Both the position numbers and the translations under genes were made by a program. A stretch of 64,000 nucleotides of DNA. Source: Pseudomonadales bacterium. Lineage in GTDB: Bacteria > Pseudomonadota > Gammaproteobacteria > Pseudomonadales > IMCC2047. Numbering within the stretch: the stretch's first letter is position 1; each line of letters starts with the position of its first letter. Below, piece after piece: positions 31,005 through 50,368 of this stretch. A model generated the notes under the pieces. That model searched no databases, was not told the origin of the DNA, and was given only the letters and a program-made list of their open reading frames with translations. The stretch lies in assembly GCA_036960805.1 (NCBI GenBank), contig JBALXL010000005.1, positions 15,300 through 79,299 on the forward strand, written 5' to 3'.

Positions 31005-31039
31005 AGAAAACTATAAAGACTTAACATTCCGCTACTCGA

Positions 31040-31250: not shown

Positions 31251-31294
31251 TAATTTAACCTTACTAAACGCACGGTGGGTGCAAGGTGTTAAAC

Positions 31295-31489
31295 ATGTCT
31301 TCAGTTCAAACTTCAATTTCTAAGTCTTCTACTTCTTTGGTAGCGACAACATCAACAGGTTGGTTAAGCACACTGACGGCTTTGGCCTTCGGTGCGATCT
31401 TAGTGTTTGCCGTAGGTTTCGCGCCTATGAGCGTTGCGCATAACGCCGCACACGACGTCCGCCACAGCATGGCATTTCCCTGCCACTAA
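31295..31489 (+). CDS. cbtB: Cobalt transporter subunit CbtB
   Basis: 64 aa from the ATG at 31295 (the track starts at GTG 31286). It has one TM helix and the C-terminal signature HNAAHDVRHSMAFPCH. Confidence 0.85.
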   Translation: MSSVQTSISKSSTSLVATTSTGWLSTLTALAFGAILVFAVGFAPMSVAHNAAHDVRHSMAFPCH

Positions 31490-34104: not shown

Positions 34105-34704
34105 ATGACGGATAAAAACGAAGCTCACAAAAAACGCGCCGCCTCCCGCAAAGCCGTGATCGATGCAAAGATAGCCAAATCTACCGAAGAGCGTGGCGTA
34201 CTGATTCTTTTGAAAGGTCCGGGCAAAGGTAAAAGCAGTTCAGCCTTTGGCACCATGGCGCGTTCAGTTGGACATGGTAAGAAATGCGCGGTGATTCAGT
34301 TCATCAAAGGGCGTTTGGAAACCGGCGAATACAAACTGTTTAAAGATCATCCGCTAATCGATTGGCACATTATGGGTCACGGTTTTACCTGGGAAACGCA
34401 GGATCGCGAGAAAGACATTGAAGCCGCGCAGCAGGCCTGGGCGCTGGCAGAACAGCTTTTGCAGGATGACAGCTACGATATGCTGGTATTTGATGAGATG
34501 AGCTACATGTTCAAATACGGTTATCTGGATGTGGAGCCGGTTGTTAAGGCTTTGGAAAACCGTCCACTCATGCAGAGTGTGATTATTACCGGCCGTACCA
34601 TGGCCGCGCCGCTGCAGGATGTTGCCGACACCATCAGTGTCATTCAGGATGAGCGTCATGCCTTCCGTCTAGGTGTTAAGGCGCAGGCAGGCATCGAATT
34701 CTAA
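34105..34704 (+). CDS. cobO: Cob(I)yrinic acid a,c-diamide adenosyltransferase (CobO/BtuR/CobA type)
   Basis: 199 aa with the P-loop-like GPGKGKSSSAFG motif and the DEMSYMFKYGYL region typical of CobO/BtuR. Confidence 0.92.
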   Translation: MTDKNEAHKKRAASRKAVIDAKIAKSTEERGVLILLKGPGKGKSSSAFGTMARSVGHGKKCAVIQFIKGRLETGEYKLFKDHPLIDWHIMGHGFTWETQDREKDIEAAQQAWALAEQLLQDDSYDMLVFDEMSYMFKYGYLDVEPVVKALENRPLMQSVIITGRTMAAPLQDVADTISVIQDERHAFRLGVKAQAGIEF

Positions 34705-36071
34705 TGACTGCTTCCTTGTCTGCAAGTTGCCCCGCTCTATTTATTGCCGCGCCGTCTTCCGGGCAGGGTAAAACAACAGTAACCGCTGCATTGGCGCGTT
34801 TTTTTGCCCGTCAGGGTAAAGACGTTCGTGTATTCAAAACCGGCCCTGATTACCTCGATCCGCAAATTCTCGCACAAGCCTCAGGCAAACATGTCGAGCA
34901 GTTGGATATGTGGATGGCTGGCGAAGCTTACTGCCAACAAAAGTTATATGAAGCGGCCAGAGAGGCTGACCTGATTCTGGTGGAAGGCGCGATGGGCTTG
35001 TTTGATGGCGAGCCCTCTAGTGCTGATCTCGCTTCACGATTTAATATTCCTGTTGCCCTGCTGATGGACGTGAAAGGCATGGCGCAGACTGCGGCGGCGA
35101 TTGCTATCGGCTTGGCTAACTTCCGTGATGACGTAAAGTTTGTCGGTTTGATTGCCAATAATTGTGGCTCGGAACGTCATGCCCAGCTAATTCGCGATTC
35201 ATTGCCTGACAGTCTTCCGCTGTTAAGTATTTTTCCGCGCGATGAAGCAGTGGCTCTGCCAGAGCGCCATTTGGGCTTGGTGCAGCCTTCCGAAGTTGGT
35301 GATGAGTTAGATGTTCGAATCAACAATGGCGCTGATCAGATAGGCGAGAGTCTTCAGCGCGAAGACAGTGGCATTGCTGAATTGCCAAAGCCCGTTGAGT
35401 TTTTCGCGGTGATGGAAGCTGCACCTGAACAAAGCGTCGATCTGAGTAAGGTTAAAATTGCCGTCGCCAAAGACGAAGCATTTACTTTTATTTATGACGC
35501 AAACATACGATTTTTGCGTGAGTTAGGCGCAGAAGTCAGCTTTTTCTCGCCATTAAGCGACAAAGCTCTGCCGGAAGCCGATGCATTGTGGTTTCCGGGT
35601 GGTTATCCAGAATTACATGCACAGCAGTTATCAAAAAATAGCAGCATGATTGCGTCTGTTCGTGATTTTTCAGCCACAGATAAGCCGATTTTGGCTGAAT
35701 GTGGCGGTTTCCTTTATTGCCTAGAAAGTCTGACTGATTTACAGGACGTCACTTATCCGATGGCAGGAATCTTAGCGGGCGAAGGCGCCATGCGCGGCAA
35801 GCGTGGCTGTCAGGGTATGCAAACAGCGCCATTGCCGGAAGGTGAGGTGCGTGCTCATGCTCACCATCGCTCACGCTCTAGCGGCACACCGGAGCCAATT
35901 GCTCATGGCCGACGCCAGCGACATCCTGCACCGGGTGAAGCAATCTTCCGAGAGCGTGGATTAACGGCTACCTACCTTCATTTGTTCTTCCCATCTAACC
36001 CAGAGGCCGTAGCGCAATTGTTTAAGCCCCAGCTAGGTAAAGAGCTGGGTCAAATGAAAGCGACGGGCTGA
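34704..36071 (+). CDS. cobB: (Hydrogeno)cobyrinic acid a,c-diamide synthase (CobB/CbiA)
   Basis: 455 aa with SGQGKTTVTAALAR, a GPDYLDP motif and a C-terminal glutamine amidotransferase domain (ECGGFLY). TAATG overlap with cobO. Confidence 0.92.
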   Translation: MTASLSASCPALFIAAPSSGQGKTTVTAALARFFARQGKDVRVFKTGPDYLDPQILAQASGKHVEQLDMWMAGEAYCQQKLYEAAREADLILVEGAMGLFDGEPSSADLASRFNIPVALLMDVKGMAQTAAAIAIGLANFRDDVKFVGLIANNCGSERHAQLIRDSLPDSLPLLSIFPRDEAVALPERHLGLVQPSEVGDELDVRINNGADQIGESLQREDSGIAELPKPVEFFAVMEAAPEQSVDLSKVKIAVAKDEAFTFIYDANIRFLRELGAEVSFFSPLSDKALPEADALWFPGGYPELHAQQLSKNSSMIASVRDFSATDKPILAECGGFLYCLESLTDLQDVTYPMAGILAGEGAMRGKRGCQGMQTAPLPEGEVRAHAHHRSRSSGTPEPIAHGRRQRHPAPGEAIFRERGLTATYLHLFFPSNPEAVAQLFKPQLGKELGQMKATG

Positions 36072-36082
36072 AGTAAAAGAAT

Positions 36083-37204
36083 ATGTGGCCGGAGAGCGAA
36101 GAAGAACCTCGCCCCTTACGTACCGGTCTGACCACTGGCTGCTGTGCCACGGCTTGTTGTGTCGCTACTGCGCATTTATTACTGGGCGAGCAACGCGTTG
36201 AAAATGCCACGGTGACCTTGCCAGAAAAACGCGGCAAGGCAGGTAAGCAGGTCGAGCTGGTAATCTGTGACTTACTTTTGAGTAGGGGAATTAGTGGCGA
36301 TTCGGCGCGCGCGGCAACGATTAAAGACGCAGGTGATGACCCAGACGTAACACACGGCGCCAAAGTGTTCGTTGATCTGGAGTTGATATCAGAGCAGGGC
36401 GTTCAGTTTAAAGCGGGTGACGGCGTGGGTACCGTGACTCGCGACGGTTTGGCATTAGCTGTAGGTGAGGCTGCGATTAATCCTGTGCCGCAAATGATGA
36501 TGCGACAACACCTTGAGGATATTGCCGCTAGCTACGGTTATCAGGGTGGCTTTGTAGTCAGCGTTGGCGTGGAAAAAGGCGCGGAACTGGCGCAGAAAAC
36601 CATGAACCCGCGCTTGGGTATTATGGGCGGTTTATCAATTTTAGGCACTACAGGTATTGTGCGGCCCTTTTCCTGTTCGGCCTATATTGCCTCGATTCAT
36701 CAGGGCATTGATGTGGCGCTGGCCAATGGTTTTCAGCATGTTGCTGCGACCACGGGCAATACCAGCGAAGAAGCGATTCGTACGTATTATGGCTTGCCTG
36801 AAATGGCGTTGATTGAAATGGGCGATTTTGCCGGTGCCGTGTTGAAGTATCTGAAACAAAAGCCGGTGCAGAAAGTCAGCCTGTGCGGCGGTTTTGGCAA
36901 ATTAAGCAAGTTGGCGAATGGTCATTTGGATTTACACAGCCGTGCTTCCAGCGTGGATTTTGAGCAGCTGGCCGGATTGGCAAAAGAAGCGGGTGCCGAT
37001 GAAACTTTGCAAGATTCGATCCGCCAGGCCAATACCAGCATGGAAGCGCTGAAGTTATGCCAGCAGCAGAATGTTGATCTAGCGGCCGGTGTCTGTGACG
37101 CGGCTTTACAACATGCACGGAAAATTGTGCCCGCTGAAGTCGAACTGGAAATATGGGCAGTTGATCGCAAGGGCCAGTTTATTGGCTCGGCGGGTGTGCA
37201 ATGA
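36083..37204 (+). CDS. cbiD: Cobalt-precorrin-5B (C1)-methyltransferase CbiD
   Basis: 373 aa with the [13 protein letters not shown] motif and the [13 protein letters not shown] region typical of CbiD. Confidence 0.9.
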
Positions 37205-37968
37205 AGCTGTTATTGCTGGGTGGCACGGCGGATGCACGCCGATTAGCGAAACGATTCCTCTGCGATGAAGAGGGGCGAGATGATATTGAAATCGTCTACA
37301 GCGTAGCAGGACTGGTGCGTATGCCGGATGTTGATTGCGAAGTGATCAGTGGCGGTTTTAGCCAGTTTGGTGGTTTGCAGGCTTATCTTGAGCAGCAAAA
37401 GATTGATGCCGTATTAGATGCGACTCATCCCTACGCGGAGGCGATGACCTCCACGGCCTGGTCGGTAACGCAGCAGCTTGGTATGTCCTATTGGCGCTTT
37501 CATCGCGCTCCCTGGCAGGCGCAGGCTGGTGATAAATGGCAGATGTTTGCGGGTTGGCCGCAGTTACTTGCGGCGCTGACGGAGTTCAAGTCAGTTTTTC
37601 TGACTGCCGGTCAGATAAATGAATTGGCAGTGGCGACGTTTGCCAAATATGGTGAACAGAACCAGAAGCAATTGTTGCGAACAGCGGTGCAGCCAAAGCA
37701 TCCTCTGTCGGATTCGATGAGCTGGATTAAAGCCATCGGTCCCTTTGATTTAGAAAACGAACTGACGCTGATGAAACAGAATCAGGTAGATGTGCTGGTC
37801 AGTAAAAACAGTGGCGGTAAAGCCACCGAGGCCAAGCTGGAGGCGGCGCGTAATTTAGACATTCCTGTTATGATGCTGGCCCGTCCGGCATTACCTGATG
37901 GCATAACAGCTTTTGACCAAATTGATGCCTGTTCAGAACATATATTGAATTTTGGAAGCAAGAAGTGA
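37201..37968 (+). CDS. cobK: Precorrin-6A / cobalt-precorrin-6A reductase (CobK/CbiJ)
   Basis: 255 aa with [20 protein letters not shown] and VSKNSGG motifs. ATGA overlap with cbiD. Confidence 0.9.
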
Positions 37969-38507
37969 GAGTATCGGTTTATATTGGAATCAGTTTAGAT
38001 GGTTATATCGCCCGGGCCGATGGCGATATTGACTGGTTAATGGCTGCTGATACATCTGATGGTTCGGATGATTATGGCTATAAGGCGTTTTCGGACAGTG
38101 TTGATTGTATGATCATGGGCCGGAACACTTTTGAAAAGGTGCTGAGCTTTCCCGAATGGCCTTATGTAGGTAAACGACTTATTGTTTTGAGCCGCACGTT
38201 AAAAGCGCTGCCCGTAGAACTTGAAGAGTGTGTGGTGTTGTATTCGGGGTCGATAATTGAATTGGTGAAGCAACTGGAAAATGAAGGCTGTCAGCGACTC
38301 TACATTGATGGTGGCGAAACCATTCAGTCGTTTTTGAATGAGGGTTTGATAACAGACCTGAGCATAACTCGAGTGCCGGTATTGTTAGGTGAAGGCTTGT
38401 CACTCTTTGGTAAAACTAAGCAGGACATTCAACTCAAACACATTTCCACAAAAACCTTCAAAAATGGTTTTGTGCAATCAATCTATGGCGTCGTAAATGA
38501 AGTTTGA
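37965..38507 (+). CDS. Dihydrofolate-reductase-family / RibD C-terminal-domain protein (function in this operon unknown)
   Basis: 180 aa with the family pattern SLDGYIA...DW, MGRNTFE, LIVLSR, YIDGGETIQSFL and ITRVPVLLGEGLSLF. GTGA overlap with the cobK stop and an 11-nt overlap with the cobH start. Confidence 0.8.
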   Translation: MRVSVYIGISLDGYIARADGDIDWLMAADTSDGSDDYGYKAFSDSVDCMIMGRNTFEKVLSFPEWPYVGKRLIVLSRTLKALPVELEECVVLYSGSIIELVKQLENEGCQRLYIDGGETIQSFLNEGLITDLSITRVPVLLGEGLSLFGKTKQDIQLKHISTKTFKNGFVQSIYGVVNEV

Positions 38508-39138
38508 ATACGAAATAAACCCACAGGCAATTGAAGCAGAGAGCTTCCGCCAGATTCGCGAGCTGACGCCGCTTGACGGTTTCAGCCGGGAACAACAGCA
38601 GGTGGTGATGCGTATGGTGCACAGCGTCGGCATGCCAGAGCTGTCGGCACAGGTACGTTTCAGTGCGAACGCCTGCGAGAATGGCTTGAAGGCATTGGCT
38701 GAAAACTGCCCGATTCTGTGCGATGCCGAAATGGTTAAGCAGGGCATTACCAAACGTATGATTCAATCGTTGCCGTTGTGTTACCTCAATGACGAACGCA
38801 CGCCCGAGTTAGCCAAAGAGCGTGGCGAAACCCGCTCAATGGCTGCCCTGCAACTTTGGCAGGAAAAATTAGCAGACAGTGTGGTGGTGATCGGTAATGC
38901 GCCAACGGCGTTGTTTCGGTTGCTGGAAATGATTGAGAAGGGCGCGGAAAAACCAGCGTTGATTATTGGTATCCCGGTGGGATTTGTAGGTGCTGCTGAA
39001 TCCAAACAGGCGCTGTGGGACGTACATGAAAAGCTGGGTGTGGAATGCATCACTCTGCTGGGTCGTCAGGGCGGTAGTGCAATTTCGGCGTCAGTCTGTA
39101 ACGCATTGTTGCGCTGCAATAAGGGCGAGTATTACTGA
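38497..39138 (+). CDS. cobH: Precorrin-8X methylmutase (CobH/CbiC)
   Basis: 213 aa with typical CobH sequence (NPQAIEAESF..IR, MVHSVGMPE, VVIGNAPTALF, IIGIPVGFVGAAESK). Confidence 0.93.
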   Translation: MKFEYEINPQAIEAESFRQIRELTPLDGFSREQQQVVMRMVHSVGMPELSAQVRFSANACENGLKALAENCPILCDAEMVKQGITKRMIQSLPLCYLNDERTPELAKERGETRSMAALQLWQEKLADSVVVIGNAPTALFRLLEMIEKGAEKPALIIGIPVGFVGAAESKQALWDVHEKLGVECITLLGRQGGSAISASVCNALLRCNKGEYY

Positions 39139-39139
39139 T

Positions 39140-40402
39140 ATGTCAGCCTTTAAAATTCACATCATCGGCCTGGGTGTTACCGACACGGCCGAGCTTTCAA
39201 AGGCTGCGACAAAGGCATTAGCGAGTTGTGAGCGTGTGCTGGGTTCGGCGCGTCAGCTGGAGGTTGTAGCCGGGCAGTTGTCAGGACAGCAAACCGAGCA
39301 ATTACCCGAGTTGAAGAATTTGCCCGTTTATCTGGCGGATTTGATTCGCGACGGCGTTTCTAGTCTGGCGCTGCTGGCTTCTGGTGATCCACTTTATTAC
39401 GGCATTGGTCGCTGGTTCAGCAAGAATTTTAGTGACCAGCAATTACATTTTTATCCGGCCGTTTCCAGCATTCAGATGGCGTGTCATCAGTTGGGCCTGT
39501 CGTTGCAGGATGTTGAGGTTTTAAGCCTCCACGGGCGTCCGCTGGAGAAAATTCGCAGCAAGTTGAAAGCGCGCCAAACGCTAGTGATTTTGACTGATAA
39601 AAACAGTTCGCCACAGGCACTGGCACGTGAATGCATCGCCGCCGGTTTTGATGAATCACAGCTGAGCGTGTGTGAAGCGCTGGGTTATCCGCAGCAGCGC
39701 ATCAGTCGTTATTCGGCTGATGAAATGCTGCATGTGAATATTGATTTTGACCCGCTGCACGTAACGGTGATTGAAACGCGCGGCGACGGCGGTGTGTTAC
39801 CGGAATTCCCTGGCATACCTGACGCCTCGTATGTTACTGACAAGGCGGATGGTCGGGGCATGCTGACTAAGCGCGATGTGCGACTGTCGATTTTGTCATT
39901 GATGCAGCCTGCCAACAATGAAGTGATTTGGGATATTGGCGCGGGTTGTGGCGGTGTCTCAGTTGAGTTGGCCTATTGGAATGAGACGACTCAAGTGGTT
40001 GCCATTGAGCATCACGATGAACGGTTGAAATGTTTGAATGCCAACCGTGACAAGTTTGGATTGATGGGTAATTTGACCGTTGTGCAGGGCCGCGCCCCCG
40101 AGGCGTTGGAGGAATTACCTGCGCCGGACAAAATCTTTATTGGCGGTAGCGATGGCAGTTTGCCGGAGTTGCTGGAGCAGTGCTGGTCCAAGTTGCCCGC
40201 GCAGGGCCTGTTAGTCGCGAGTGCAGTAACCGAGCAGAGCAAACAACAATTATTGGCGTTTTATCAGCAGCGCGAGACGGTGAGAGATAGCCGTAATGAA
40301 ACCTTACAGGTGGCGGTGAGCCATGGTACGCAATTGGCAGGACAGTTGGTCTATCGCCCCAGTTTGCCTGTGACGCTGTTTAAATTTAGTAAGAGAAAAT
40401 AA
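39140..40402 (+). CDS. cobL: Precorrin-6Y C5,15-methyltransferase (decarboxylating), CobL = CbiE+CbiT fusion
   Basis: 420 aa from the ATG at 39140 (TGATATG junction with cobH). It has an N-terminal tetrapyrrole methylase domain and a C-terminal class-I methyltransferase domain (WDIGAGCGGVSVE). The track ORF extends upstream into cobH. Confidence 0.92.
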   Translation: MSAFKIHIIGLGVTDTAELSKAATKALASCERVLGSARQLEVVAGQLSGQQTEQLPELKNLPVYLADLIRDGVSSLALLASGDPLYYGIGRWFSKNFSDQQLHFYPAVSSIQMACHQLGLSLQDVEVLSLHGRPLEKIRSKLKARQTLVILTDKNSSPQALARECIAAGFDESQLSVCEALGYPQQRISRYSADEMLHVNIDFDPLHVTVIETRGDGGVLPEFPGIPDASYVTDKADGRGMLTKRDVRLSILSLMQPANNEVIWDIGAGCGGVSVELAYWNETTQVVAIEHHDERLKCLNANRDKFGLMGNLTVVQGRAPEALEELPAPDKIFIGGSDGSLPELLEQCWSKLPAQGLLVASAVTEQSKQQLLAFYQQRETVRDSRNETLQVAVSHGTQLAGQLVYRPSLPVTLFKFSKRK

Positions 40403-40404
40403 GC

Positions 40405-41145
40405 ATGAAAGACGATTTTTCTGACATAGCGGTTGGCACCTTTATTGGTGTGGGCGTAGGCCCCGGCGATCCTGAACTGATTACTTTAAAAGCGTTACGC
40501 GCTATTCGTAAGGCCGACGTGATCAGTTATATCGCCAATGATAAGGGTGAGTCACAAGCAAAATACATTGCCCGCGAGGCTTTGGAAGAAGTTAAAGATG
40601 GCCAGCAGGAAATCCCAGTATGTATGCCGATGTGCAATGATCGCAACATTGCGAACGGTGTGTACGACAAGGCTGCATCTGAGATACGCGAGCAATTGGA
40701 ACAGGGCCACAACGTGGTTTTCATTTGCGAAGGTGACCCGCTGTTTTTCGGTTCTTTCACCTATTTGCTGGAGCGCCTTGAGGATGACTGCCCTTGTCAG
40801 GTGATTCCGGGTATTTCATCGATCAATTCTGCCTCGGCGGCGCTGCGCCATCCGTTGACCATGTTGAAGGAGTCGCTGGTCGTGGTGAGTGGTCGTCATA
40901 GCGACGAGCAATTACGTGAAGCCTTGCTCCAGCACGATAGCGTAGTGATTATGAAGGCAGGTCGTGCGCGACCGCGTATTCTGGTGTTGTTGAAAGAGAC
41001 AAACCGTTTAGGTGAAGCGCGTTATCTGGAGAATATTGGTCGTCGTGACGAAATAATTTTTGAAGATATGTCAGCGCTGGACGAAGAAGAAGGCCCGTAC
41101 TTTTCGCTGTTTATCGTCACACGTTCGGAACGAGATCGTACATGA
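40405..41145 (+). CDS. cobI: Precorrin-2 / cobalt-factor-II C20-methyltransferase (CobI/CbiL)
   Basis: 246 aa tetrapyrrole methylase (GVGVGPGDPELITLKA, CEGDPLFFGSF, PGISS). Confidence 0.9.
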   Translation: MKDDFSDIAVGTFIGVGVGPGDPELITLKALRAIRKADVISYIANDKGESQAKYIAREALEEVKDGQQEIPVCMPMCNDRNIANGVYDKAASEIREQLEQGHNVVFICEGDPLFFGSFTYLLERLEDDCPCQVIPGISSINSASAALRHPLTMLKESLVVVSGRHSDEQLREALLQHDSVVIMKAGRARPRILVLLKETNRLGEARYLENIGRRDEIIFEDMSALDEEEGPYFSLFIVTRSERDRT

Positions 41146-41918
41146 TTCGTATTGTTGCACTCACCGAGAAGGGCAAAGAGCTGGCTGTTCGCCTCAAGAG
41201 TGAGTTGGTGGATGCAGAGTTGTGGTACAAACCGCAGCCCTTTACCGAAAAAGTGCAGCAAGCATTTGCGGCCGGTGAACGTTTGATTTTGATCTGCGCT
41301 ACTGGCATTGCCGTGCGCACGCTGGGACCGGTGCTAGGTAACAAACATAATGATCCGGCGGTACTCGTGCTGGATGAGTTGGGCCAGTTTGTGATTCCGC
41401 TGTTGTCGGGTCATGAAGGTGGTGCCAATGAGTGGGGCGCTCAGGTGGCAGAAAAGCTGGGTGCTCAGTTAGTGCTGACGACAGCGAAAAGTTATTTAAA
41501 ACCGGTGTACTGTGTCGGCATGGGCTGCGAGCGTGATACGCCAGTGTCGGAAATTGCGGATCTGTTCAGCGATTGTCTGCAATCGCTGGGGTTGAATATT
41601 CGCGAGTTGAGCAGCATTAACAGTATTGATATTAAAGCTGATGAAGTCGGTTTCATCGATCTGGCGCGGATCAGTAAAATCCCGTTTCTAACCTGGGATA
41701 AAGAGCAGCTTGGCACCATGGAAAGTTTGCTTAGTACGCGCTCGGATTATATTTTTAACACCGTGGGTGTCTACGGTGTGGCTGAATCGGCGGCGCTTTA
41801 TGCAGCCCAGCAAGCCAGTGGTGATTTTGAGGCAGCGCCGGAGTTGTTGCTGCCAAAACAGAAAAAAGGCCGGGTAACCTGTGCGGTTGCGCGAGCCTAT
41901 GTGAAGGATGTTAGTTAG
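41142..41918 (+). CDS. cbiG: Cobalt-precorrin-5A hydrolase CbiG (N-terminal plus C-terminal/CobE-like domains)
   Basis: 258 aa. The CbiG N-domain shows ICATGIAVRTLGP...DPAVLVLDE.G.FVIPLLSGHEGGAN. A CobE-like C-domain follows (CVGMGCERDTP..., GVYGVAESAAL). ATGA overlap with cobI. Confidence 0.85.
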   Translation: MIRIVALTEKGKELAVRLKSELVDAELWYKPQPFTEKVQQAFAAGERLILICATGIAVRTLGPVLGNKHNDPAVLVLDELGQFVIPLLSGHEGGANEWGAQVAEKLGAQLVLTTAKSYLKPVYCVGMGCERDTPVSEIADLFSDCLQSLGLNIRELSSINSIDIKADEVGFIDLARISKIPFLTWDKEQLGTMESLLSTRSDYIFNTVGVYGVAESAALYAAQQASGDFEAAPELLLPKQKKGRVTCAVARAYVKDVS

Positions 41919-41921
41919 AGA

Positions 41922-42704
41922 ATGAGTAAATTATTTGTAGTGGGTACCGGTCCTGGTGATTCTGAATTAGTAGCACCTAAAGCACGTGCCGCAATTGTGG
42001 CGAGTTCTGATCTGGTGGCCTATGGCCTGTATCTGGATTTGTTGGGTGACGTGTGTGACGGTAAAGCGCATCATGATTTGCCTTTGGGTGAAGAAATTAA
42101 TCGTGCGCGTCTGGCATTGGATTTAGCGGCTAGCGGTAAAACGACGTCGCTTGTTTCCAGTGGTGATATCGGCATTTACGCGATGGCGACGCTGGTATTT
42201 GAGTTGTTGGATCGCCAACTTCAGGGCTTGGAAGATCACCCCGAATGGTTGGATGTCGAGATTGAGGTTATCCCCGGTATTTCTGCGATGCAGGCGGGCG
42301 CTGCGCGAGTGGGTGCGTTGCTTGGGCATGACTTTTGTACGGTATCGCTGTCGGATTTGCTGACGCCATGGGAAACCATTGAGCAGCGTATTCATTGCGC
42401 AGGCAAAGGCGATTTTGTAATTTCCTTTTATAATCCGGTATCGAAAAAACGCGATTGGCAACTTAATGCAGCACGCGATATTTTGCTGCAATCTCGCCCA
42501 GCGTCAACGCCGGTATTATTGGGTCGTCAGTTAACCCGTGAAGATGAAAGCGTCACCATCACCACCTTGGGCGAGCTGGATGCCAAAGACGTGGATATGT
42601 TCACGATGGTGTCGGTGGGTAATAGCGAATCACGTCATATTGTTAATGGCAGTAAAGAGTGGGTTTATACGCCCCGTGGCTACAGCAAAAAGTTGGTGAA
42701 TTAA
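41922..42704 (+). CDS. cobJ: Precorrin-3B / cobalt-factor-III C17-methyltransferase (CobJ/CbiH)
   Basis: 260 aa tetrapyrrole methylase (LFVVGTGPGD, SSGDIGIYAMA, IPGISAMQ, SLSDLLTPWE..I). Confidence 0.9.
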   Translation: MSKLFVVGTGPGDSELVAPKARAAIVASSDLVAYGLYLDLLGDVCDGKAHHDLPLGEEINRARLALDLAASGKTTSLVSSGDIGIYAMATLVFELLDRQLQGLEDHPEWLDVEIEVIPGISAMQAGAARVGALLGHDFCTVSLSDLLTPWETIEQRIHCAGKGDFVISFYNPVSKKRDWQLNAARDILLQSRPASTPVLLGRQLTREDESVTITTLGELDAKDVDMFTMVSVGNSESRHIVNGSKEWVYTPRGYSKKLVN

Positions 42705-43493
42705 ATGACAGTCTATTTTATTGGCGCAGGCCCGGGTGATCCCGAATTAATCACAGTAAAAGGCCAGCGCCTGATTAAAGAGTCACCAGTGATTCTGTAT
42801 GCTGGCTCGTTGGTTCCTCTCGAAATCCTCGATATTGCCGAGGGCCGAGCCGAGAAAATCATCGATACCGCTTCCATTGATCTCGACGAGATCATGGTGC
42901 ATATCGAAGCTGCGCATGCTGAAGGCAAAGATGTAGCACGAGTGCACTCTGGCGATCCTTCCGTGTACGGCGCGATTGGCGAGCAGATCCGCCGATTGGA
43001 GCAACTGGGTATCGATTTCGAAGTGATTCCTGGCGTTACAGCGACTTCTGCATCTGCCGCGTGGTTGGGCAAAGAGCTTACGCTGTCAGAAGTTTCGCAA
43101 ACGATCATCATGACTCGCTACGAAGGTAAAACGCCATTCCCGGAACGAGAGCGTTTGCCAGAATTGGCACGCAGTGGCGCAACTTTGGCTATTCATTTGG
43201 GCATTAATCGAATCCATAAAATTGTTGAAGAACTTATTCCACATTATGGCGAAGATTGTCCGGTAGCCGTGTGTTATCGAACCTCCTGGCCTGATCAGGA
43301 TAAGGTAATCGGCACCCTGACGGATATCGTTGCTAAAGTTCGCGAGAAAAAATTTACTCGGACAGCGCTGATTCTGGTCGGCCATGTGCTGGACAGTGAT
43401 CAATTCCGTGACTCTTATTTGTACAGTAAAGATCAGGCGCACGTTTATCGACCCAAGGTGAAGCCTGCTGTGGCACGTACGGTTAAAAGATAA
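42705..43493 (+). CDS. cobM: Precorrin-4 / cobalt-precorrin-4 C11-methyltransferase (CobM/CbiF)
   Basis: 262 aa (VYFIGAGPGDPELITVKG, RVHSGDPSVYGA, IPGVTA). Starts immediately after the cobJ stop. Confidence 0.93.
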   Translation: MTVYFIGAGPGDPELITVKGQRLIKESPVILYAGSLVPLEILDIAEGRAEKIIDTASIDLDEIMVHIEAAHAEGKDVARVHSGDPSVYGAIGEQIRRLEQLGIDFEVIPGVTATSASAAWLGKELTLSEVSQTIIMTRYEGKTPFPERERLPELARSGATLAIHLGINRIHKIVEELIPHYGEDCPVAVCYRTSWPDQDKVIGTLTDIVAKVREKKFTRTALILVGHVLDSDQFRDSYLYSKDQAHVYRPKVKPAVARTVKR

Positions 43494-43567
43494 CAATGAA
43501 GGGCGCTCTGAAGATGAGCGATAATACATTTTCAGAAACCCAACTAATGAATTAAAGGCTTATATTT

Positions 43568-43747
43568 ATGCGTATTAGAGATGTTATTTTTGTTGCGGTA
43601 ATTGCTTTTGGCTTGTGGTTTACGTTCGTTCCAGCTGAAGTGGCTGAAAAAGCAGGCAATCCTGCTTTCGGCACTAAAGAAACAGCTGAAACTTCTACTT
43701 TAAACCAACCAACTCCAGAGATGGCCGCACCTGCAGTCGCTGAATAA
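43568..43747 (+). CDS. Candidate small membrane protein (59 aa), absent from the ORF track because it is under the length cutoff
   Basis: My own translation is MRIRDVIFVAVIAFGLWFTFVPAEVAEKAGNPAFGTKETAETSTLNQPTPEMAAPAVAE*. It is on the operon strand, has AAGG about 10 nt upstream and one TM helix, and fills the cobM-cobW gap. Confidence 0.4.
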   Translation: MRIRDVIFVAVIAFGLWFTFVPAEVAEKAGNPAFGTKETAETSTLNQPTPEMAAPAVAE

Positions 43748-43780
43748 TTTGTAAATAGAAACACTCTATTGGAAGCAACC

Positions 43781-44866
43781 ATGCAACTAAACAAAATACC
43801 CGCCACTATCGTTACCGGTTTTCTGGGCAGCGGTAAAACTACGTTATTATCGAATGTTCTGAAACAGGCGGCGGGCAAACGTATTGCCGTGATCGTTAAT
43901 GAGTTTGGCGAACTGGATATTGATGCCGACCTGCTACGCAGCTGCCCGCTTAGCTGTGATGACGAAAGCAATGAGGGTTCAACAACGCAGGGGCAGGACG
44001 GTATTTACGAACTGGCCAATGGTTGTATCTGTTGCACCGTGGAAGAAGAGTTTCTGCCAGTGATGAAGCAACTGGTGGCGCGTCGTAATGATATCGATCA
44101 CATTCTGATTGAGACCAGCGGTTTAGCGTTACCGAAACCATTGGTACAGGCGTTTAACTGGCCTGAAATCAAACAGTTCTGCACCGTTGATGCGGTGATT
44201 ACCGTGGTTGACGGGCCAGCAATCAGCGCCGGTCGTTTTGCCAGTGATGAAGCGCGTGTTGAAGCGCAACGACAGGGCGATGAAAGTCTGGATCACGATC
44301 CAAGCCTGCAGGAATTGCTGGATGATCAGCTCAGTGCTGCCGATCTGGTGGTGGTTAGTAAAAATGATCTGCTCAGCGATGCCGAACGTGAAGAGGTGAG
44401 AAAACGCATTACCGCACGTTTACCCGAGTCAGTGAAAACGGCCTACATCAGCAACGGCGAAACTCAGCTGGATGTGTTGATGGGTATTGAAGCTGCTGCC
44501 GAAGATCGTATTGATGCGGTGCATACTCACCACGATCATCACCACCATCATGGTGAGCACCATGATCACGCCCACGATCACTTTGATTCCTTTGTGATTA
44601 CCATGGATGAAGTGGAAGCCGAGCCGCTACAAACGGCGTTGAAAGGTTTGCTTGCTGAGCACAATATCTTCCGTGCGAAAGGTTTTGCAGCTTTGCCGGG
44701 TAAACCGATGCGCCAGGTATTACAGGCGGTAGGTGAACGTCTTGATGTGCATTTTGATCGCCTCTGGCAGGCCGATGAAGCACGCAAAACTAGCCTGGTA
44801 TTTATCGGTAAAGATCTTGATGAAGCCGTGGTACGTAAGGCGCTTGAAACGGCGTTGGTGGCATAA
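43781..44866 (+). CDS. cobW: Cobalamin biosynthesis GTPase / metallochaperone CobW (COG0523)
   Basis: GFLGSGKTTLL P-loop, CICCT metal motif, ETSGLA, and the His stretch HTHHDHHHHHGEHHDHAHDH. The start is ATG 43781; the track uses TTG 43769. Confidence 0.92.
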   Translation: MQLNKIPATIVTGFLGSGKTTLLSNVLKQAAGKRIAVIVNEFGELDIDADLLRSCPLSCDDESNEGSTTQGQDGIYELANGCICCTVEEEFLPVMKQLVARRNDIDHILIETSGLALPKPLVQAFNWPEIKQFCTVDAVITVVDGPAISAGRFASDEARVEAQRQGDESLDHDPSLQELLDDQLSAADLVVVSKNDLLSDAEREEVRKRITARLPESVKTAYISNGETQLDVLMGIEAAAEDRIDAVHTHHDHHHHHGEHHDHAHDHFDSFVITMDEVEAEPLQTALKGLLAEHNIFRAKGFAALPGKPMRQVLQAVGERLDVHFDRLWQADEARKTSLVFIGKDLDEAVVRKALETALVA

Positions 44867-44995
44867 CTAGATTGACATTTCGACCAGCGGGAGAGATCTT
44901 TTCGGCATAGAAAAGAAAGGTCTCTCACCGTCGCTTACCCGCAAGCGAGTACAAGCGGGATGAAACGTATTTTTAATAGGTAATAAAAGCATTCT

Positions 44996-47900
44996 ATGCA
45001 CCTACTAGCCTCAAAACCCGGTGGCTTTGTCGATGACGAAGGTATTGTTGATCTGGACCAAAGCCCCGCTGACTTGGTTATTCTATCGGCAGCGGATAGT
45101 AGTTTAGCGGCGCTGGCCGGTGCAGTTGATATCCTATCCTCAGACTTTCCTTCCGTACGGTTAGCTAACTGGATGCAGTTGGCTAAACCGGCGGCCTTTG
45201 ACCTTTACCGACACAAGGTTTTGGATCATGCCAAGGTGGTGGTGCTGTCTTTGTTGGGTGGCAAAAACTACTGGCCCTACGGTTTTGAGCAGTTGTCGGA
45301 ATGGCTTAGCGAGGCGACACCCAAAAATCCTCGTCAATTAATCATCGTACCGGGTGATGACAGCGCCGATCCTGAATTAACGCTCGCTAGCTCGGTATCA
45401 CCTGAGCAAGCACATCGAGTGTGGCGTTATCTGCGTGAAGGTGGCGTGAGCAACGCGCAGCAATTATTGAATTTCATCGGCAGTGAATATCTCGATGGCG
45501 ATTACGCCTGGGGTGAACCCCAGCAGTTGCCACCCTGTTTGATGTACATGCCGAGCTTTGGCCAAGCAACGTTGCTTGAGTGGCAGCAGCGCTGGGCTCT
45601 GAATGACGATAAGACTGAGCAGCCCGTTTGCCTACTGTTGTTTTATCGGAGTCACCTGCAAAGCGCTAATACACAGATGTTTGATGGTCTGATTGAGTGC
45701 CTCGAACAGCAAGGCTTGCACCCGTTACCTATTGCCCTGACTTCCCTAAAAGACGCCGATAGCCTGACGCTGGTTAATTCATTAATCGAGCAAACCGGTG
45801 CGAGTTTAGTCATCAATACCACCAGCTTTGCCAGTAATAGCGTGTCTACGCCTGAGCTGTCGTCACAACCCACTCTGTACGAATCATCTTTTGAAAAAGC
45901 ACTGCCAGTTTTGCAGTTAGTGCTTTCCAGCAGTACCGAAGAGGATTGGCTCGAACATAGCCAAGGCCTGCGCAGCCGCGATATTGCCATGCAGGTGGTG
46001 TTGCCGGAAATGGACGGGCGCATTATCACTCGTGCCGTCAGTTTCAAGGCCGAAAGCCACTTCTGTGAGCGAGGTGAAATTTCTGTCGTGTCCTATGCGC
46101 TGCAACCGGAGCGAGCTTCCTTTGTAGCGCAACTGGCAAAGCGTTATTGCGCGCTGACCAGTAAACCGAATGCTGAAAAACGTATCGCGCTGATGCTGGC
46201 CAATTATCCAACGCGTGATGGCCGTATCGGCAATGGCGTCGGACTGGATACGCCTGCTTCGACTATCAATATTCTGCGCGCTCTTGAGCAGGCCGGTTAT
46301 CCGATCAGTAATGTGCCGGAAACGGGTAATCAACTGATTGAAGAATTGTTGGGGGCGGTTACTAATAACCCGGCGACTTTGCATCAGTTACCCTGTTGGC
46401 AGAGCATTGCTGTTGATGAGTATTTGGCGCATTTTCAAAAGCTACCCGAAGCCTGTCAGCGTGCTGTCACTGAGCAATGGGGTGGCCCCGAGCAAGATCC
46501 TAAATGTCGGCAAGGTCGTTTAATGATTGCCGGTATTCGCCTTGGTGAAACCTTTATCGGTATTCAGCCTGCGCGTGGTTTTAATATGGACCTTCAGGCC
46601 AATTATCACGATCCTGACTTGGTGCCGCCGCACAGTTACCTAGCTTGTTATTTCTGGCTACGCGAAACCTATCAAGTTGATGCCGTTATTCATGTCGGCA
46701 AACACGGCAATTTGGAATGGCTGCCGGGCAAAGGTCTTGGCTTATCTGAAAGCTGCTGGCCAGACATTGCGCTGGGACCTATGCCGCATTTTTATCCCTT
46801 TATTGTTAATGATCCCGGTGAAGGCGCGCAGGCTAAACGCCGTGCGCAGGCGACCATTATTGATCACCTGATGCCTCCGATGACGCGTGCTGAAAGCTAT
46901 GGTGAGTTGGCCGAACTGGAAAATTTGGTGGATGAGTATTACCAAGCGCTCGGTATGGATACCCGTCGTGAAACTTGGTTGCGCGAGCAGATTCTTGAAC
47001 AGGTCAAAGTCACCCATGTGCTTGATGAACTGAGTCTTTCACCGGAGTGCGAACAGGGCGATGACGAAGTGCTTGCCGAGCTGGATGGTTATTTGTGTGA
47101 AATTAAAGAGGCGCAGATTCGTCACGGTTTGCATATTCTTGGCGAGCTGCCTGAAGACTCAAAGCTGACCGACACGGTGGTGGCGCTGTTGCGCTTGCCG
47201 CGTGGCGAAGAACCAGCCGGTTTAGGTATTTTACATGCGCTGGCAACTGATCTGGCACTGAATTGCGTTGATCCATTGGCGCTGGATGCCACTCCCTGGC
47301 TGGGCAATAAACCGCAAGTTTTAGCGGATCTGGATGACAGTGTTTGGCGCACCGGTGCTGATACCCGTGAGCGTCTTGAGCTGTTAGCCCAAAAGTTGAT
47401 AGCAGAATATGTGGTTGCTGACGGTGAGAGCGCGTCATTGGCTGTGCAACTGTCAGCAACGTATCCGCAAACCAGTCAATTATTAGCCTACGCCAAACAG
47501 GTGTTGATGGCGGCGCTGGATCAAAGTGCTTATCTTGAAATCAATGCGCTGATCGAAGGGCTTAATGGATTGTTTGTCCCTCCCGGTCCTAGCGGCGCAC
47601 CAACCCGTGGGCGACTCGATACGTTGCCCACCGGACGTAACTTCTTCTCGGTGGATAATCGCTCTATTCCTTCGCCAGCGGCCTGGGTGCTGGGACAACT
47701 TTCTGCGCAGGCCTTAATCGAACGGCATCTGCAGGAGCACGGCGATTACCCCCAACAGCTGGGCTTGTCGGTGTGGGGCACGGCCACCATGCGCACCGGT
47801 GGTGATGATATCGCGCAGGCTTTTGCGCTGATGGGTATAAAACCGATTTGGGCACAGGGTTCGCAGCGGGTGGTGGACTTTGAAATTATGCCGGCCATGT

Positions 47901-48868
47901 TGATGGGCCGACCGCGTGTCGATGTCACCTTGCGTGTGTCGGGCTTTTTCCGAGACGCCTTTCCTAATGTGATTAAACTTTTTGATGCGGCGGTACTGGC
48001 GTTGGCTGAATTTGACGAGCCGGGGCAGGATAACCGCATACGTACTCATATCGAGACAAGACAGCAAACGTTGCTGGATGAAGGGCTGACTGAAAATGAA
48101 GCGCTGCGCCAAGCCAGTTATCGTGTGTTTGGAAGTAAACCGGGTGCCTATGGCGCTGGATTACAGGGCCTAATTGATGAGCGATGCTGGGATGAACAAA
48201 GCGATCTAGCAGAAGCCTATTTAAACTGGGGCGGCTATGCCTATGGTCGCCATGACTTGTCCCCAGAGGCTGAGAGCAAAGACTTTGGAGGCATTGAAGC
48301 GCAGGGTAGTTTCCGTCATCAGTTATCGCAGTTGGAAGCGGTGGTGCAGAATCAGGATAACCGAGAACATGATTTGCTCGATTCCGATGATTATTACCAG
48401 TTTCAGGGCGGCATGACTAATGCGGTCACCGTACTCAAGGGTGATGCACCAGCGGTGTATCACAGCGATCACTCCAATCCATCGGCACCTAAAATTCGTA
48501 CATTGAAAGAAGAGCTGAATCGCGTAGTGCGTTCTCGCTTGCTGAATCCTAAATGGATAAATGCCATGCAGGAGCACGGCTATAAAGGCGCTTTTGAGAT
48601 GACCGCCAGCGTCGATTATTTATTCGCCTACGATGCCACCACTAATTTGATTGACGATTATCAGTATGAAAAAGTAGCCGATGCGCTGGTGTTTGATGAA
48701 GTTAACCAGAAATTTTTGCAGGATAATAATCCTAATGCTTTGGAAGAAATGGCTGAGCGTTTACTGGAAGCCACTCAGCGCGGTTTGTGGCAGGAGCCGG
48801 GTGAATATGCCGATCAGTTACAGAGCTTATTATTAGAGCTGGATGAGCAACAGGAAATGAGTTCGTAA
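44996..48868 (+). CDS. cobN: Cobaltochelatase large subunit CobN
   Basis: 1290 aa with a typical CobN N-terminus (MHLLASKPG...IVDLDQSPADLVILSAADS.LAALA) and CobN/ChlH-family conservation throughout. Confidence 0.97.
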   Translation: MHLLASKPGGFVDDEGIVDLDQSPADLVILSAADSSLAALAGAVDILSSDFPSVRLANWMQLAKPAAFDLYRHKVLDHAKVVVLSLLGGKNYWPYGFEQLSEWLSEATPKNPRQLIIVPGDDSADPELTLASSVSPEQAHRVWRYLREGGVSNAQQLLNFIGSEYLDGDYAWGEPQQLPPCLMYMPSFGQATLLEWQQRWALNDDKTEQPVCLLLFYRSHLQSANTQMFDGLIECLEQQGLHPLPIALTSLKDADSLTLVNSLIEQTGASLVINTTSFASNSVSTPELSSQPTLYESSFEKALPVLQLVLSSSTEEDWLEHSQGLRSRDIAMQVVLPEMDGRIITRAVSFKAESHFCERGEISVVSYALQPERASFVAQLAKRYCALTSKPNAEKRIALMLANYPTRDGRIGNGVGLDTPASTINILRALEQAGYPISNVPETGNQLIEELLGAVTNNPATLHQLPCWQSIAVDEYLAHFQKLPEACQRAVTEQWGGPEQDPKCRQGRLMIAGIRLGETFIGIQPARGFNMDLQANYHDPDLVPPHSYLACYFWLRETYQVDAVIHVGKHGNLEWLPGKGLGLSESCWPDIALGPMPHFYPFIVNDPGEGAQAKRRAQATIIDHLMPPMTRAESYGELAELENLVDEYYQALGMDTRRETWLREQILEQVKVTHVLDELSLSPECEQGDDEVLAELDGYLCEIKEAQIRHGLHILGELPEDSKLTDTVVALLRLPRGEEPAGLGILHALATDLALNCVDPLALDATPWLGNKPQVLADLDDSVWRTGADTRERLELLAQKLIAEYVVADGESASLAVQLSATYPQTSQLLAYAKQVLMAALDQSAYLEINALIEGLNGLFVPPGPSGAPTRGRLDTLPTGRNFFSVDNRSIPSPAAWVLGQLSAQALIERHLQEHGDYPQQLGLSVWGTATMRTGGDDIAQAFALMGIKPIWAQGSQRVVDFEIMPAMLMGRPRVDVTLRVSGFFRDAFPNVIKLFDAAVLALAEFDEPGQDNRIRTHIETRQQTLLDEGLTENEALRQASYRVFGSKPGAYGAGLQGLIDERCWDEQSDLAEAYLNWGGYAYGRHDLSPEAESKDFGGIEAQGSFRHQLSQLEAVVQNQDNREHDLLDSDDYYQFQGGMTNAVTVLKGDAPAVYHSDHSNPSAPKIRTLKEELNRVVRSRLLNPKWINAMQEHGYKGAFEMTASVDYLFAYDATTNLIDDYQYEKVADALVFDEVNQKFLQDNNPNALEEMAERLLEATQRGLWQEPGEYADQLQSLLLELDEQQEMSS

Positions 48869-48871
48869 TAC

Positions 48872-50368
48872 ATGACCGATAAAACGTACAACACTTTGAT
48901 GGTACAGGGCACTACCTCCGATGCGGGTAAAAGCGTATTAGTAGCGGGGTTATGTCGTGTACTGTTTCGAAAAGGCGTCAAAGTGGTGCCTTTTAAACCG
49001 CAGAACATGGCGCTTAATAGTGCCGTGACTGTTGATGGCGGTGAAATTGGTCGCGCACAGGCGGTACAGGCCCAGGCCTGTGGGCTGGAGCCGCATACTG
49101 ATATGAATCCGGTATTGCTCAAGCCCAACAGTGATACGGGCGCGCAGGTTATTATTCACGGTCACGCCGTCACGGAGATGGATGCCGTGAGTTATCACGC
49201 TTATAAAGCCACGGCGATGAAAGCGGTGCTGGATTCCCATATCCGTCTACAAAATCAGTATCAGGTGGTGATGGTCGAGGGGGCAGGCAGCCCTGCAGAG
49301 ATTAATCTACGTGAAAACGATATCGCCAATATGGGCTTTGCCGAAAAAGTCGATTGCCCGGTGATTTTGGTGGCGGATATTGACCGTGGTGGTGTATTTG
49401 CGCATTTGGTAGGCACGCTCGAATTGCTGTCGGCCAGCGAGCAGGCGCGCGTGATGGGTTTTGTGATCAATCGTTTTCGTGGCGACGTCAGTATTTTGCA
49501 GCCGGGTTTGGATTGGCTGGAAGAACGTACCGGTAAACCGGTGTTGGGCGTATTACCTTTCCTGAAGGGTTTCCACCTGGAGGCCGAAGATGCAGTGGCT
49601 GGACAGCAGGAGCTGGATGCTGATAGTAAAACACTGAAAGTCGTGGTGCCGGTGGTATCGCGCATTAGTAATCACACCGATTTTGATGCGCTGCGGTTAC
49701 ATCCGCAGGTAGATATAGAGTTCGTCCGTGCTGGTGAAGAGATACCCGGCGCCGACCTGATTATCCTGCCCGGGAGTAAAAGTACCCGTAGTGACTTGCG
49801 CTGGTTACGAGAGCAGGGCTGGGATAAGGCAATTGAAAAGCATCTGCGTTATGGCGGTAAAGTGATTGGTATTTGCGGTGGTTTCCAGATGCTGGGGAAT
49901 ACAGTTGCTGACCCTGATGGTATCGAAGGGCCTGCGGGTAGTTCTGAGGGGCTGGGCCTGTTGGATATGGAAACGACTTTGGAGCGCGATAAGCAGCTGC
50001 GTCGCGACAAAGGACGTTTGGCTTTTACGACAGAAGATGCGCAAGTTGAAGGTTATGAAATTCATGCGGGCGTCACACAGGGCGCAGCCTTGGATCATCC
50101 TGCTGTGAAACTGACCGAGCGCAATGATGGTGCGGTGTCTGAAGATGGACAAATACTGGGCACTTATTTACACGGTCTGTTTGATCACTCCGAAGCTTGT
50201 GAGGCGCTGCTAAAGTGGGCGGGTCTTGAGCAGGTTCAGCGTATTGATTATCGCGCACGGCAAGAGGCGGATATTGAACGTTTGGCGGATGCTATAGAAG
50301 AGCATTTGGATTTGGATAGCGTTTATGAGGCATTAAGCCTTAACGCTGATGTTTGTGAGGGTGCGTAG
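48872..50368 (+). CDS. cobQ: Cobyric acid synthase (CobQ/CbiP)
   Basis: 498 aa with [24 protein letters not shown] and a C-terminal GATase domain ([10 protein letters not shown]). Confidence 0.95.

Follow-up and report, generated by a model that had tools for sequence, protein, structure and literature searches.

We analyzed a 64,000-nucleotide stretch of a Pseudomonadales bacterium genome (contig JBALXL010000005.1, positions 15,300 to 79,299; hereafter the window, whose own numbering is used throughout) that carries a cobalamin (vitamin B12) biosynthesis operon of mosaic gene content. Our results indicate that this riboswitch-controlled operon probably directs de novo cobalamin synthesis by the oxygen-independent, cobalt-early route in an aerobic organism. 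We favor this reading because a class II chelatase gene, cbiX, is linked or fused to cob genes in related clusters and encodes a protein with a predicted long-form (CbiXL) architecture, and because CobG was found in none of the related clusters. On the cobalt-early side, the window encodes this chelatase along with CbiG and CbiD instead of CobF; on the cobalt-late side, it encodes CobN, a partner protein with AAA+ and von Willebrand factor A (VWA) domains and an adjacent CobW, whereas CobG, CobZ and CobF are missing from it. The co-occurrence of both chelatase classes with CbiG and CbiD, and with no CobG in the cluster, was observed in the window, in its relatives and in Ralstonia.

Genes were assigned using NCBIfam and Pfam profile scans of the window open reading frames (ORFs), and the riboswitch using an Rfam scan. 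A single cobalamin riboswitch (31025–31260, plus strand; RF00174, 80.7 bits), the sole one in the window, is followed by a near-continuous run of plus-strand genes of about 25 kb that ends at bluB, the whole operon extending from 31025 to 56628. The genes are arranged in the order cbtBA, chlID, cobO, cobB, cbiD, cobK, a RibD_C-like ORF, cobH, cobL, cobI, cbiG, cobJ, cobM, a 59-amino-acid (aa) ORF, cobW, cobN, cobQ, cobP, cobT, cobC, cobS, cbiB, cobD and bluB, and the only sizeable gap lies between cobC and cobS. A permissive Rfam scan of the 25–57 kb region revealed no second riboswitch (no other match at E < 0.5) and no convincing terminators were found in the cobM-cobW-cobN gaps, which makes it plausible that the cob genes form a single B12-repressed transcription unit. 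This operon is much longer than the segment from 34105 to 48868 to which the original prediction had assigned the pathway. The ChlD-like protein that the prediction included is present, but its gene lies just outside this segment (32376–34094) and encodes an AAA+/VWA fusion, and the RibD_C-like ORF within the segment had gone unmentioned.

The corrin genes listed in that prediction (encoding CbiA/CobB, CbiD, CobK, CobH, CobL, CobI, CbiG with both of its domains, CobJ, CobM, CobN and CobW) were all recovered intact by the profile scans, on the plus strand. The a,c-diamide synthase gene cobB/cbiA (34704–36071; NF002204, 413 bits against a cutoff of 254) is followed by the C1 methyltransferase gene cbiD (36083–37204; NF000849, 493.8 bits against an equivalog cutoff of 348), the precorrin-6A reductase gene cobK/cbiJ (37201–37968; NF005968, 211 bits) and, past the RibD_C-like ORF, the methylmutase gene cobH/cbiC (38497–39138; NF006136, 246.6 bits). 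Next come cobL/cbiET for the C5,C15 methyltransferase and decarboxylase (39140–40402, with its ATG start at 39140; TIGR02467 and TIGR02469), cobI/cbiL for the C20 methyltransferase (40405–41145; TIGR01467, 220.5 bits against 163), and a short form of cbiG (41142–41918) whose product has the Pfam domains CbiG_N and CbiG_C (CobE-like) without the middle domain. The ring-contracting C17 methyltransferase is encoded by cobJ/cbiH (41922–42704; TIGR01466, 288.6 bits against 246) and the C11 methyltransferase by cobM/cbiF (42705–43493; TIGR01465, 321 bits against 260). Further downstream, cobW for the Co(II) GTPase metallochaperone (43769–44866; TIGR02475, 458 bits against 332) lies immediately upstream of cobN for the large subunit of the class I ATP-dependent cobaltochelatase (44996–48868; TIGR02257, 1562 bits against 822).

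As had been predicted, we detected neither CobG, CobZ nor CobF in the window. All window ORFs of at least 150 aa were scanned with Pfam, which gave no NIR_SIR protein (CobG), no FAD_binding_2-type flavoprotein (CobZ-like) and no spare TP_methylase (CobF). We also carried out tblastn searches of the window with CobG and CobF sequences taken from the annotated aerobic clusters of Rhizobium pRL11 (L082) and of a Pseudosulfitobacter plasmid (L083). The two divergent CobG queries gave a best match of only E = 0.3, and the two CobF queries matched only the paralogues CobI and CobM. The CobG result is meaningful because the same query picks up CobGs at 28–34% identity in other plasmids. Profile matches also bore out the aerobic markers on which the prediction had relied, namely HemF (12504–13418), BluB (55891–56628) and an aa3 oxidase (59190–63395).

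To place the operon among its relatives, we scanned species-representative genomes with the window CbiG, which yielded 264 relatives, and retrieved 80 loci (L001–L080), each extending 10 kb on either side of cbiG, onto which the window proteins were mapped. The best CbiG relatives belong to uncultured marine Gammaproteobacteria (96% and 85% identity), followed at 55–66% by Pontibacterium, Hahella, Neptuniibacter, Amphritea, Bermanella, Motiliproteus, Marinomonas, Psychromonas and Vibrio. A protein-database search returned 2287 CbiG homologues, the best 120 of which all have the short form made of N- and C-terminal domains (250–290 aa). Related loci share the conserved order chlID, cobO, cobB, cbiD, cobK, cobH, cobL, cobI, cbiG, cobJ, cobM, cobW, cobN and cobQ. 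The cobN gene is found in 42 of the 80 loci, in 33 of them together with cbiG and cbiD, and 24 of these 42 also hold cbiX. The mosaic is thus the norm in a large clade and no peculiarity of this genome: contrary to the rarity implied earlier, it is widespread in marine bacteria of the Oceanospirillales/Cellvibrionales type and present in Ralstonia, with a similar combination in haloarchaea. Searching all 80 loci for CobG by tblastn was negative, and the ORFs of these clusters that no window protein matched either encode transporters, namely a HupE/NiCoT-like protein, a major facilitator superfamily (MFS) protein whose tail is rich in His and an ABC ATPase, or are unrelated; none is CobG-like. 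CobZ and CobF were not found in the related clusters either.

The window cbiX gene (25444–26724, minus strand) encodes a protein of 426 aa with two stretches matching Pfam CbiX (E 1.3e-45). A CbiX-type chelatase had been correctly anticipated upstream of the corrin genes, at 7.4 kb from position 34105 rather than the 5 kb originally given; the gene is transcribed apart from the operon, 4.3 kb upstream of the riboswitch. Of its two CbiX domains, the N-terminal one carries the His pair H18 and H84, the equivalents of which in the C-terminal lobe are Arg residues, the His-rich tail contains 36 His, and the Cys motif reads CCC (ENVCCCFMG) rather than CxxC. Among full-length cob-linked homologues, alignment revealed the N-domain His pair in 29 of 29 and His-rich tails of 10–36 His in the same 29, while a CCC or CxxC motif occurs in 25 of them; in the relatives whose cbiX lies between cobK and cobH, this motif is CQLC. 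This organization resembles that of Bacillus megaterium CbiXL, which has its catalytic His residues in the N-domain and a C-terminal extension with an Fe-S centre (MxCxxC) and a His-rich region (PMC7689651). Removal of the whole extension leaves chelation by CbiXL unaffected, and a function in metal storage or delivery has been proposed for it (PMC7689651). The window protein thus appears to have the long-form CbiX architecture, with putative Fe-S binding.

The genomic context of cbiX provides the evidence that links it to cobalamin synthesis. Using tblastn and ORF analysis, we detected a CbiX homologue in 30 of the 80 related loci, at no more than 10 kb from cbiG. The gene sits directly between cobK and cobH in 17 of them, including those of Hahella, Bermanella, Oleiphilus and Marinobacterium; in others it immediately follows cobM or cobN, often on the strand of the cob genes that it adjoins; in one locus (L007), it stands behind a full-length CysG gene that is itself placed after cobN. 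In the canonical aerobic clusters of Rhizobium (L082) and Pseudosulfitobacter (L083), the position directly upstream of cobH is that of cobG, as it is in the cobGHIJ genes of Pseudomonas denitrificans (PMC8123684). In this clade, CbiX is therefore a cob-cluster gene that takes the cobG slot. A role confined to siroheme is unlikely for a gene that holds this position in 17 loci, shares an operon with cobN in others and is fused to that of CbiC in Ralstonia.

Several observations nevertheless weigh against a cobalt-early route. The metal specificity of class II chelatases is unreadable from structure or sequence (PMC7689651), the closest solved structure to the window CbiX is the ferrochelatase SirB (6jv6/5zt7), and SirB also keeps the N-domain His residues, so that this pair does not fix the metal; cobalt is what we infer from genomic context rather than from sequence motifs. 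The window cbiX is not part of the riboswitch-led operon, is read from the other strand and has no riboswitch of its own, and profile scans of the 64 kb detected neither uroporphyrinogen III methyltransferase (SUMT) nor precorrin-2 dehydrogenase, whether as CysG or as CobA plus SirC. The corrin enzymes offer no clear orientation either: pairwise identities to the enzymes of Rhizobium, Pseudosulfitobacter, Salmonella, Thermus and Ralstonia all fall between 30 and 52% with no clean split, CobH, CobI and CobM scoring slightly nearer to the aerobic alphaproteobacterial versions. Finally, the CobN module, to which we return below, has to be accounted for.

The location of cbiX outside the operon, the ferrochelatase as nearest structure and the slight leaning of CobH, CobI and CobM would all be compatible with a Pseudomonas/Rhodobacter-like variant of the aerobic, cobalt-late pathway, in which precorrin-3B is made by the product of a cobG or cobZ gene located elsewhere in the genome, CbiG and CbiD stand in for CobF, and CbiX serves siroheme or some other purpose. 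The aerobic character of the organism, attested by HemF, BluB and the aa3 oxidase, and a late module that is complete and under selection, with high-scoring CobN and CobW and an intact ChlID, also speak for it. Moreover, aerobic clusters of the Pseudomonas type rely on CbiD and a CbiG/CobE-like protein in place of CobF; both CbiG and CbiD are present in the window, where no CobF was found, but they are weaker markers of the route than the original prediction had assumed. We consider this variant unlikely, since in canonical aerobic clusters cobG resides beside cobH, and neither it nor cobZ turned up in the 80 loci, in the 64-kb window or in the Ralstonia locus. In addition, a chelatase that serves siroheme only would not be expected to occupy the cobG position, to share an operon with cobN or to be fused to CbiC, and the His-rich tails of all 29 full-length cob-linked homologues point in the same direction.

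Similarity was rejected as a means of assigning substrate type. None of the sub-family hidden Markov models labeled "precorrin" or "cobalt-precorrin" reaches its cutoff, matches to solved structures do not separate the two types, and the identities are unsplit as described above. With sub-models below cutoff and identities of 30–52% throughout, the phylogeny of CobJ/CbiH and CobM/CbiF is unlikely to decide on substrate type by itself. Annotations of cobNST and cbiX/K are described in a B12 survey as not exclusive to either route (PMC6461909).

The late-insertion module is intact. ChlID (572 aa; 32376–34094, plus strand) matches Pfam AAA_5, Mg_chelatase, AAA_lid_2 and VWA_2, and scores 468 bits with TIGR02442, below the cutoff of 779. 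The protein joins a ChlI-like AAA+ ATPase to a VWA domain through a Pro-rich linker. Its motifs for Walker A (GPRGCAKST), Walker B (ILYVDE) and the metal ion-dependent adhesion site (MIDAS; DTSAS) are all intact, which would allow it to act as both motor and adaptor, and it is the likely partner of CobN in both functions. Comparing the window with its 96% relative (L001), we obtained ratios of nonsynonymous to synonymous substitution rates (dN/dS) of 0.041 for cobN, 0.047 for chlID and 0.035 for cobW, in the same range as cbiG (0.045) and cbiD (0.073). The three genes are thus under strong purifying selection and, being intact and conserved, are functional rather than relics. Characterized CobN complexes act on hydrogenobyrinic acid a,c-diamide, and in the textbook view, also stated in a recent metalation study, CobW is exclusive to the late route and has no part in the early pathway (PMC10206600). 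The conservation of cbtAB-chlID and cobW-cobN, all of them cobalt-handling genes, in a riboswitch-regulated B12 operon therefore argues that late chelation really happens, and a model restricted to early insertion leaves CobN, ChlID and CobW without a defined substrate.

Both types of chelation would be reconciled if CbiH, CbiF, CbiG and CbiD processed metal-free, factor-level intermediates without oxygen, so that ring contraction required no cobalt, CobW and CobN-ChlID inserted cobalt late into the finished corrin, and CbiX provided a parallel early entry whenever cobalt is at hand. Such a dual scheme gives the late module a substrate, which an early-only model does not, and agrees with the purifying selection on cobN, chlID and cobW and with the conservation of both chelatases, often in one operon. 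Purple sulfur bacteria are anaerobic phototrophs. Under cobalt starvation they make and excrete cobalt-free corrinoids (PMC6771967), which suggests that an oxygen-independent metal-free corrin route exists in some Gammaproteobacteria. We regard the scheme as unlikely, somewhat more so than the aerobic variant, because no earlier biochemical case of CbiH or CbiG working on substrates that lack the metal was confirmed, the CbiG step is described as cobalt-dependent in the haloarchaeal curation (PMC8305020, citing Moore 2013), and nothing in the sequences marks such a specificity. The original prediction had left a choice between early insertion, with another role or substrate for CobN, and ring contraction of metal-free intermediates by an unrecognized enzyme; the first is the better supported, by the linkage and fusion of CbiX and by the lack of CobG in related clusters, and the second less so.

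A further alternative reverses the two chelatases: CobN-ChlID with CobW would be the early chelatase, or act on another pre-contraction intermediate, and CbiX would buffer or deliver metal through its His-rich tail, or serve siroheme. This arrangement would account for cbtBA, chlID, cobW and cobN being inside the riboswitch-regulated operon while cbiX is outside it in this window, and the storage or delivery function proposed for the dispensable CbiXL extension (PMC7689651) lends it some plausibility. It is nonetheless very improbable in our view. CobN passes the CobN equivalog cutoff, and the characterized complexes of this family act on the late substrate (PMC10206600). The catalytic His pair retained in 29 of 29 homologues would argue for an active chelatase in CbiX, for which the CbiX-CbiC fusion suggests an enzymatic role in the pathway.

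Returning to the cobalt-early route, the scheme that we infer, including that the intermediates carry cobalt, where sirohydrochlorin comes from and any role of CobN, would be as follows. Sirohydrochlorin would be supplied by CysG, or by CobA and SirC, encoded outside the window, and long-form CbiX (25444–26724) would insert cobalt into it. The cobalt-bearing intermediates would then pass through CbiL, CbiH (ring contraction), CbiF, CbiG (lactone opening and C20 loss), CbiD, CbiJ, CbiET, CbiC and CbiA before adenosylation, amidation and nucleotide-loop assembly, with a 5,6-dimethylbenzimidazole (DMB) lower ligand made by oxygen-dependent BluB. CbtAB, CobW, CobN and the fused ChlID would constitute a second, energy-driven cobalt-handling module, which may insert cobalt into a metal-free tetrapyrrole that the cell makes or takes up, or may serve salvage, as proposed for haloarchaea.

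The remaining operon genes, all on the plus strand, cover cobalt supply and the later steps. The first two, cbtB (31286–31489; TIGR02459, 72.5 bits against a cutoff of 64.4) and cbtA (31637–32395; TIGR02458, 199 bits against 183), encode proposed cobalt transporter subunits. The corrinoid adenosyltransferase gene cobO (34105–34704; NF004637, 238.8 bits against 185) precedes cobB. Downstream of cobN, NCBIfam equivalog matches identified cobQ/cbiP (48872–50368), cobP/cobU (50369–50887), cobT for the DMB phosphoribosyltransferase (50901–51947) and cobC for the alpha-ribazole phosphatase (51949–52593). They are followed by cobS (53129–53902), cbiB (53872–54849) and cobD for threonine-phosphate decarboxylase (54798–55919), each assigned with Pfam and NCBIfam, and by bluB (55891–56628; TIGR02476, 268.7 bits against 150).

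Two ORFs of the operon are not established cob genes. The first (37965–38507, plus strand) encodes a reductase-like protein of 180 aa of the RibD_C/DHFR family (Pfam RibD_C, E 1.5e-16) and overlaps both cobK and cobH by a few bases. It is not present in the closest relatives L001 (96%) and L002; several Joint Genome Institute (JGI) metagenome contigs (L086–L088) have it in the same slot at 83–86% identity, and homologues at about 65% identity occur in unrelated gene contexts. The ORF is a lineage-specific insertion at the cobK/cobH junction. Because its occurrence is limited to a small sub-lineage and does not extend to the closest relatives, we rejected it as a missing enzyme that would be a general component of the pathway. 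At the same junction, cobK is unusually diverged between the window and L001 (77% identity versus more than 90% for the neighboring genes), which suggests local recombination. The second ORF (43568–43747, plus strand) was read from the sequence; its 59-aa product has a hydrophobic N-terminal segment (MRIRDVIFVAVIAFGLWFTF...) and is 52% identical to its counterpart in the same cobM-cobW gap of L001; L086 likewise has a small gene call at this place. Relatives of the Cellvibrionales type have cbiX in the gap, on the opposite strand; we looked for a cbiX remnant in the cobM-cobW gap of the window and found none.

Upstream of the operon, a 441-aa ORF (23328–24653, plus strand) with an N-terminal membrane anchor is convergent with cbiX, a HAD hydrolase gene lying between them. 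This ORF was rejected as a CobG substitute, given its membrane anchor, its lack of cofactor motifs and the absence of any Pfam or NCBIfam match. The region upstream of the cob genes also encodes, on the minus strand, a TonB-dependent receptor and a PepSY-TM protein (18187–21842) and a protein with a PEP-CTERM sorting signal (29641–30285), none of them preceded by a riboswitch.

Mapping the related loci gave further observations on their gene content. Relatives carry, inside their cob operons, two putative cobalt importers that replace or supplement CbtAB. One is a membrane protein of 234 aa that has several membrane passes and His-rich loops and lacks a Pfam match (L018:3716–4420; 13 loci); the other, of 459 aa, is an MFS transporter whose C-terminal tail is rich in His (L032:265–1644; 9 loci). 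In Marinomonas loci (L033, L037, L040, L044 and others) the operon stops at cbiG and is followed by an unrelated ShlB/TpsB-like transporter gene and a very large ORF; cobJ, cobM, cobW and cobN are not found within 10 kb downstream, and the remaining corrin genes must be elsewhere or missing. Psychromonas, Vibrio and Oceanospirillum loci (L048:17425–18087, L052 and L072:17980–18654) encode, between cobN and cbiX, a nitroreductase-family protein with only 36–37% identity to the window BluB; it could be a diverged BluB or some other reductase. Among the entries listed from the survey behind PMC6461909, two Amphritea are non-producers.

Ocean B12 supply depends on a limited set of producers, of which the Oceanospirillales-type carriers of this cluster are candidates, and seawater is poor in cobalt. 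Their operon unites two cobalt-insertion systems that textbooks split between pathways. Establishing what CobW, CobN and ChlID do beside CbiX, CbiG and CbiD would settle an annotation problem in metagenomic calls of aerobic versus anaerobic B12 synthesis (PMC6461909), and the same problem is a listed open issue for haloarchaea (PMC8305020). If metal-free intermediates were processed without oxygen, which we hold to be unlikely, this widespread clade of aerobic marine Gammaproteobacteria, and Ralstonia with it, would possess a third, hybrid route to B12. Such a route would account for the cobalt-free corrinoids that purple sulfur bacteria make, and would allow the macrocycle to be built under cobalt scarcity.

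Among the closest known systems, those of marine Gammaproteobacteria of the Oceanospirillales/Cellvibrionales type (Hahella, Pontibacterium, Neptuniibacter, Amphritea, Bermanella, Maricurvus, Psychromonas; L001–L080) are direct relatives of the window and have a near-collinear operon with 55–96% identity. Compared with them, the window cbiX has moved to the opposite strand, about 17 kb away from cbiG, and the RibD_C-like ORF is in the cobK/cobH slot where many relatives have cbiX.

The same mosaic is found in an aerobic proteobacterium, on the megaplasmid of Ralstonia solanacearum (L081, CP047137.1), whose cluster shares with the window a cobalt transporter, CobN, fused ChlID, CbiX, CbiD, a short CbiG with N- and C-terminal domains, CobI, CobJ, CobM, CobK, CobW, CobO, CobB and BluB. 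CobG is lacking: it had no match in the L081 locus or in Ralstonia plasmid records, versus 129 Ralstonia records with CbiG/CobJ matches, and within the plasmid collection it occurs in Alphaproteobacteria only. Among the reference proteins, the Ralstonia versions are the closest to the window CobB (51% identity) and CbiX (42%). The Ralstonia cluster differs in its fusions, CbiX::CbiC (518 aa; L081:10688–12244, annotated as "hypothetical protein") and CobJ::CobK (525 aa; L081:15717–17294), in an apparently separate CbiE, in a transporter of the NiCoT type with a ferredoxin instead of CbtAB, in gene order and in overall identities with the window of only 30–50%. In its cobN region (about 3862–7950 of L081), the PLSDB table has no gene and the ORF list is broken, possibly owing to a frameshift or an incomplete table.

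Haloarchaea share CbiX, CbiG, CobN and ChlID with the window according to the cobalamin section of a curation made at the whole-genome level (Haloferax volcanii pHV3; PMC8305020). In that section, these organisms are assigned to the cobalt-early route based on CbiX and CbiG, and keep CobN adjacent to a fused ChlID; the role of the late chelatase is called an open issue, with salvage as a speculation (PMC8305020). Besides being archaeal, they differ from the window in having CbiD and CbiJ as pathway gaps and a CbiX of the small type, and the same section reports no CobW (PMC8305020). The presence of CobN, ChlID and CobW beside CbiX is therefore an acknowledged open question and not novel to the window.

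Canonical cobalt-early clusters, such as those of Salmonella enterica, B. megaterium and Thermus thermophilus pTT27, share with the window CbiL, CbiH and CbiF, as well as CbiG, CbiD, CbiJ, CbiE/T, CbiC and CbiA, together with CbiK or CbiX, and have no CobG. Two of them offer precedents for parts of the favored reading: B. megaterium, whose CbiXL architecture the window protein appears to match, uses the cobalt-early route in an aerobe, and Thermus pTT27 belongs to an aerobe with CbiX, CbiG, CbiD and BluB, without CobN. Unlike the window, these clusters have no CobN, ChlID or CobW, their transporter is CbiMNQO rather than CbtAB, and the Salmonella CbiG (351 aa) has a middle domain. Canonical cobalt-late clusters (P. 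denitrificans, Rhizobium, Rhodobacterales) share CobW, CobN, CobO, CobB, CobH, CobI, CobJ, CobK, CobL, CobM and BluB with the window, and those of P. denitrificans have CbtAB and a riboswitch too (PMC8123684). They differ from it in having CobG beside cobH, CobF, CobE only (without the CbiG N-domain), no in-cluster CbiX, and CobS plus CobT or separate ChlI and ChlD as partners of CobN, for which the window has one fused protein. Set between these two canonical types, the mosaic is a known and widespread kind of cob cluster, of which the window is an ordinary representative rather than a new system.

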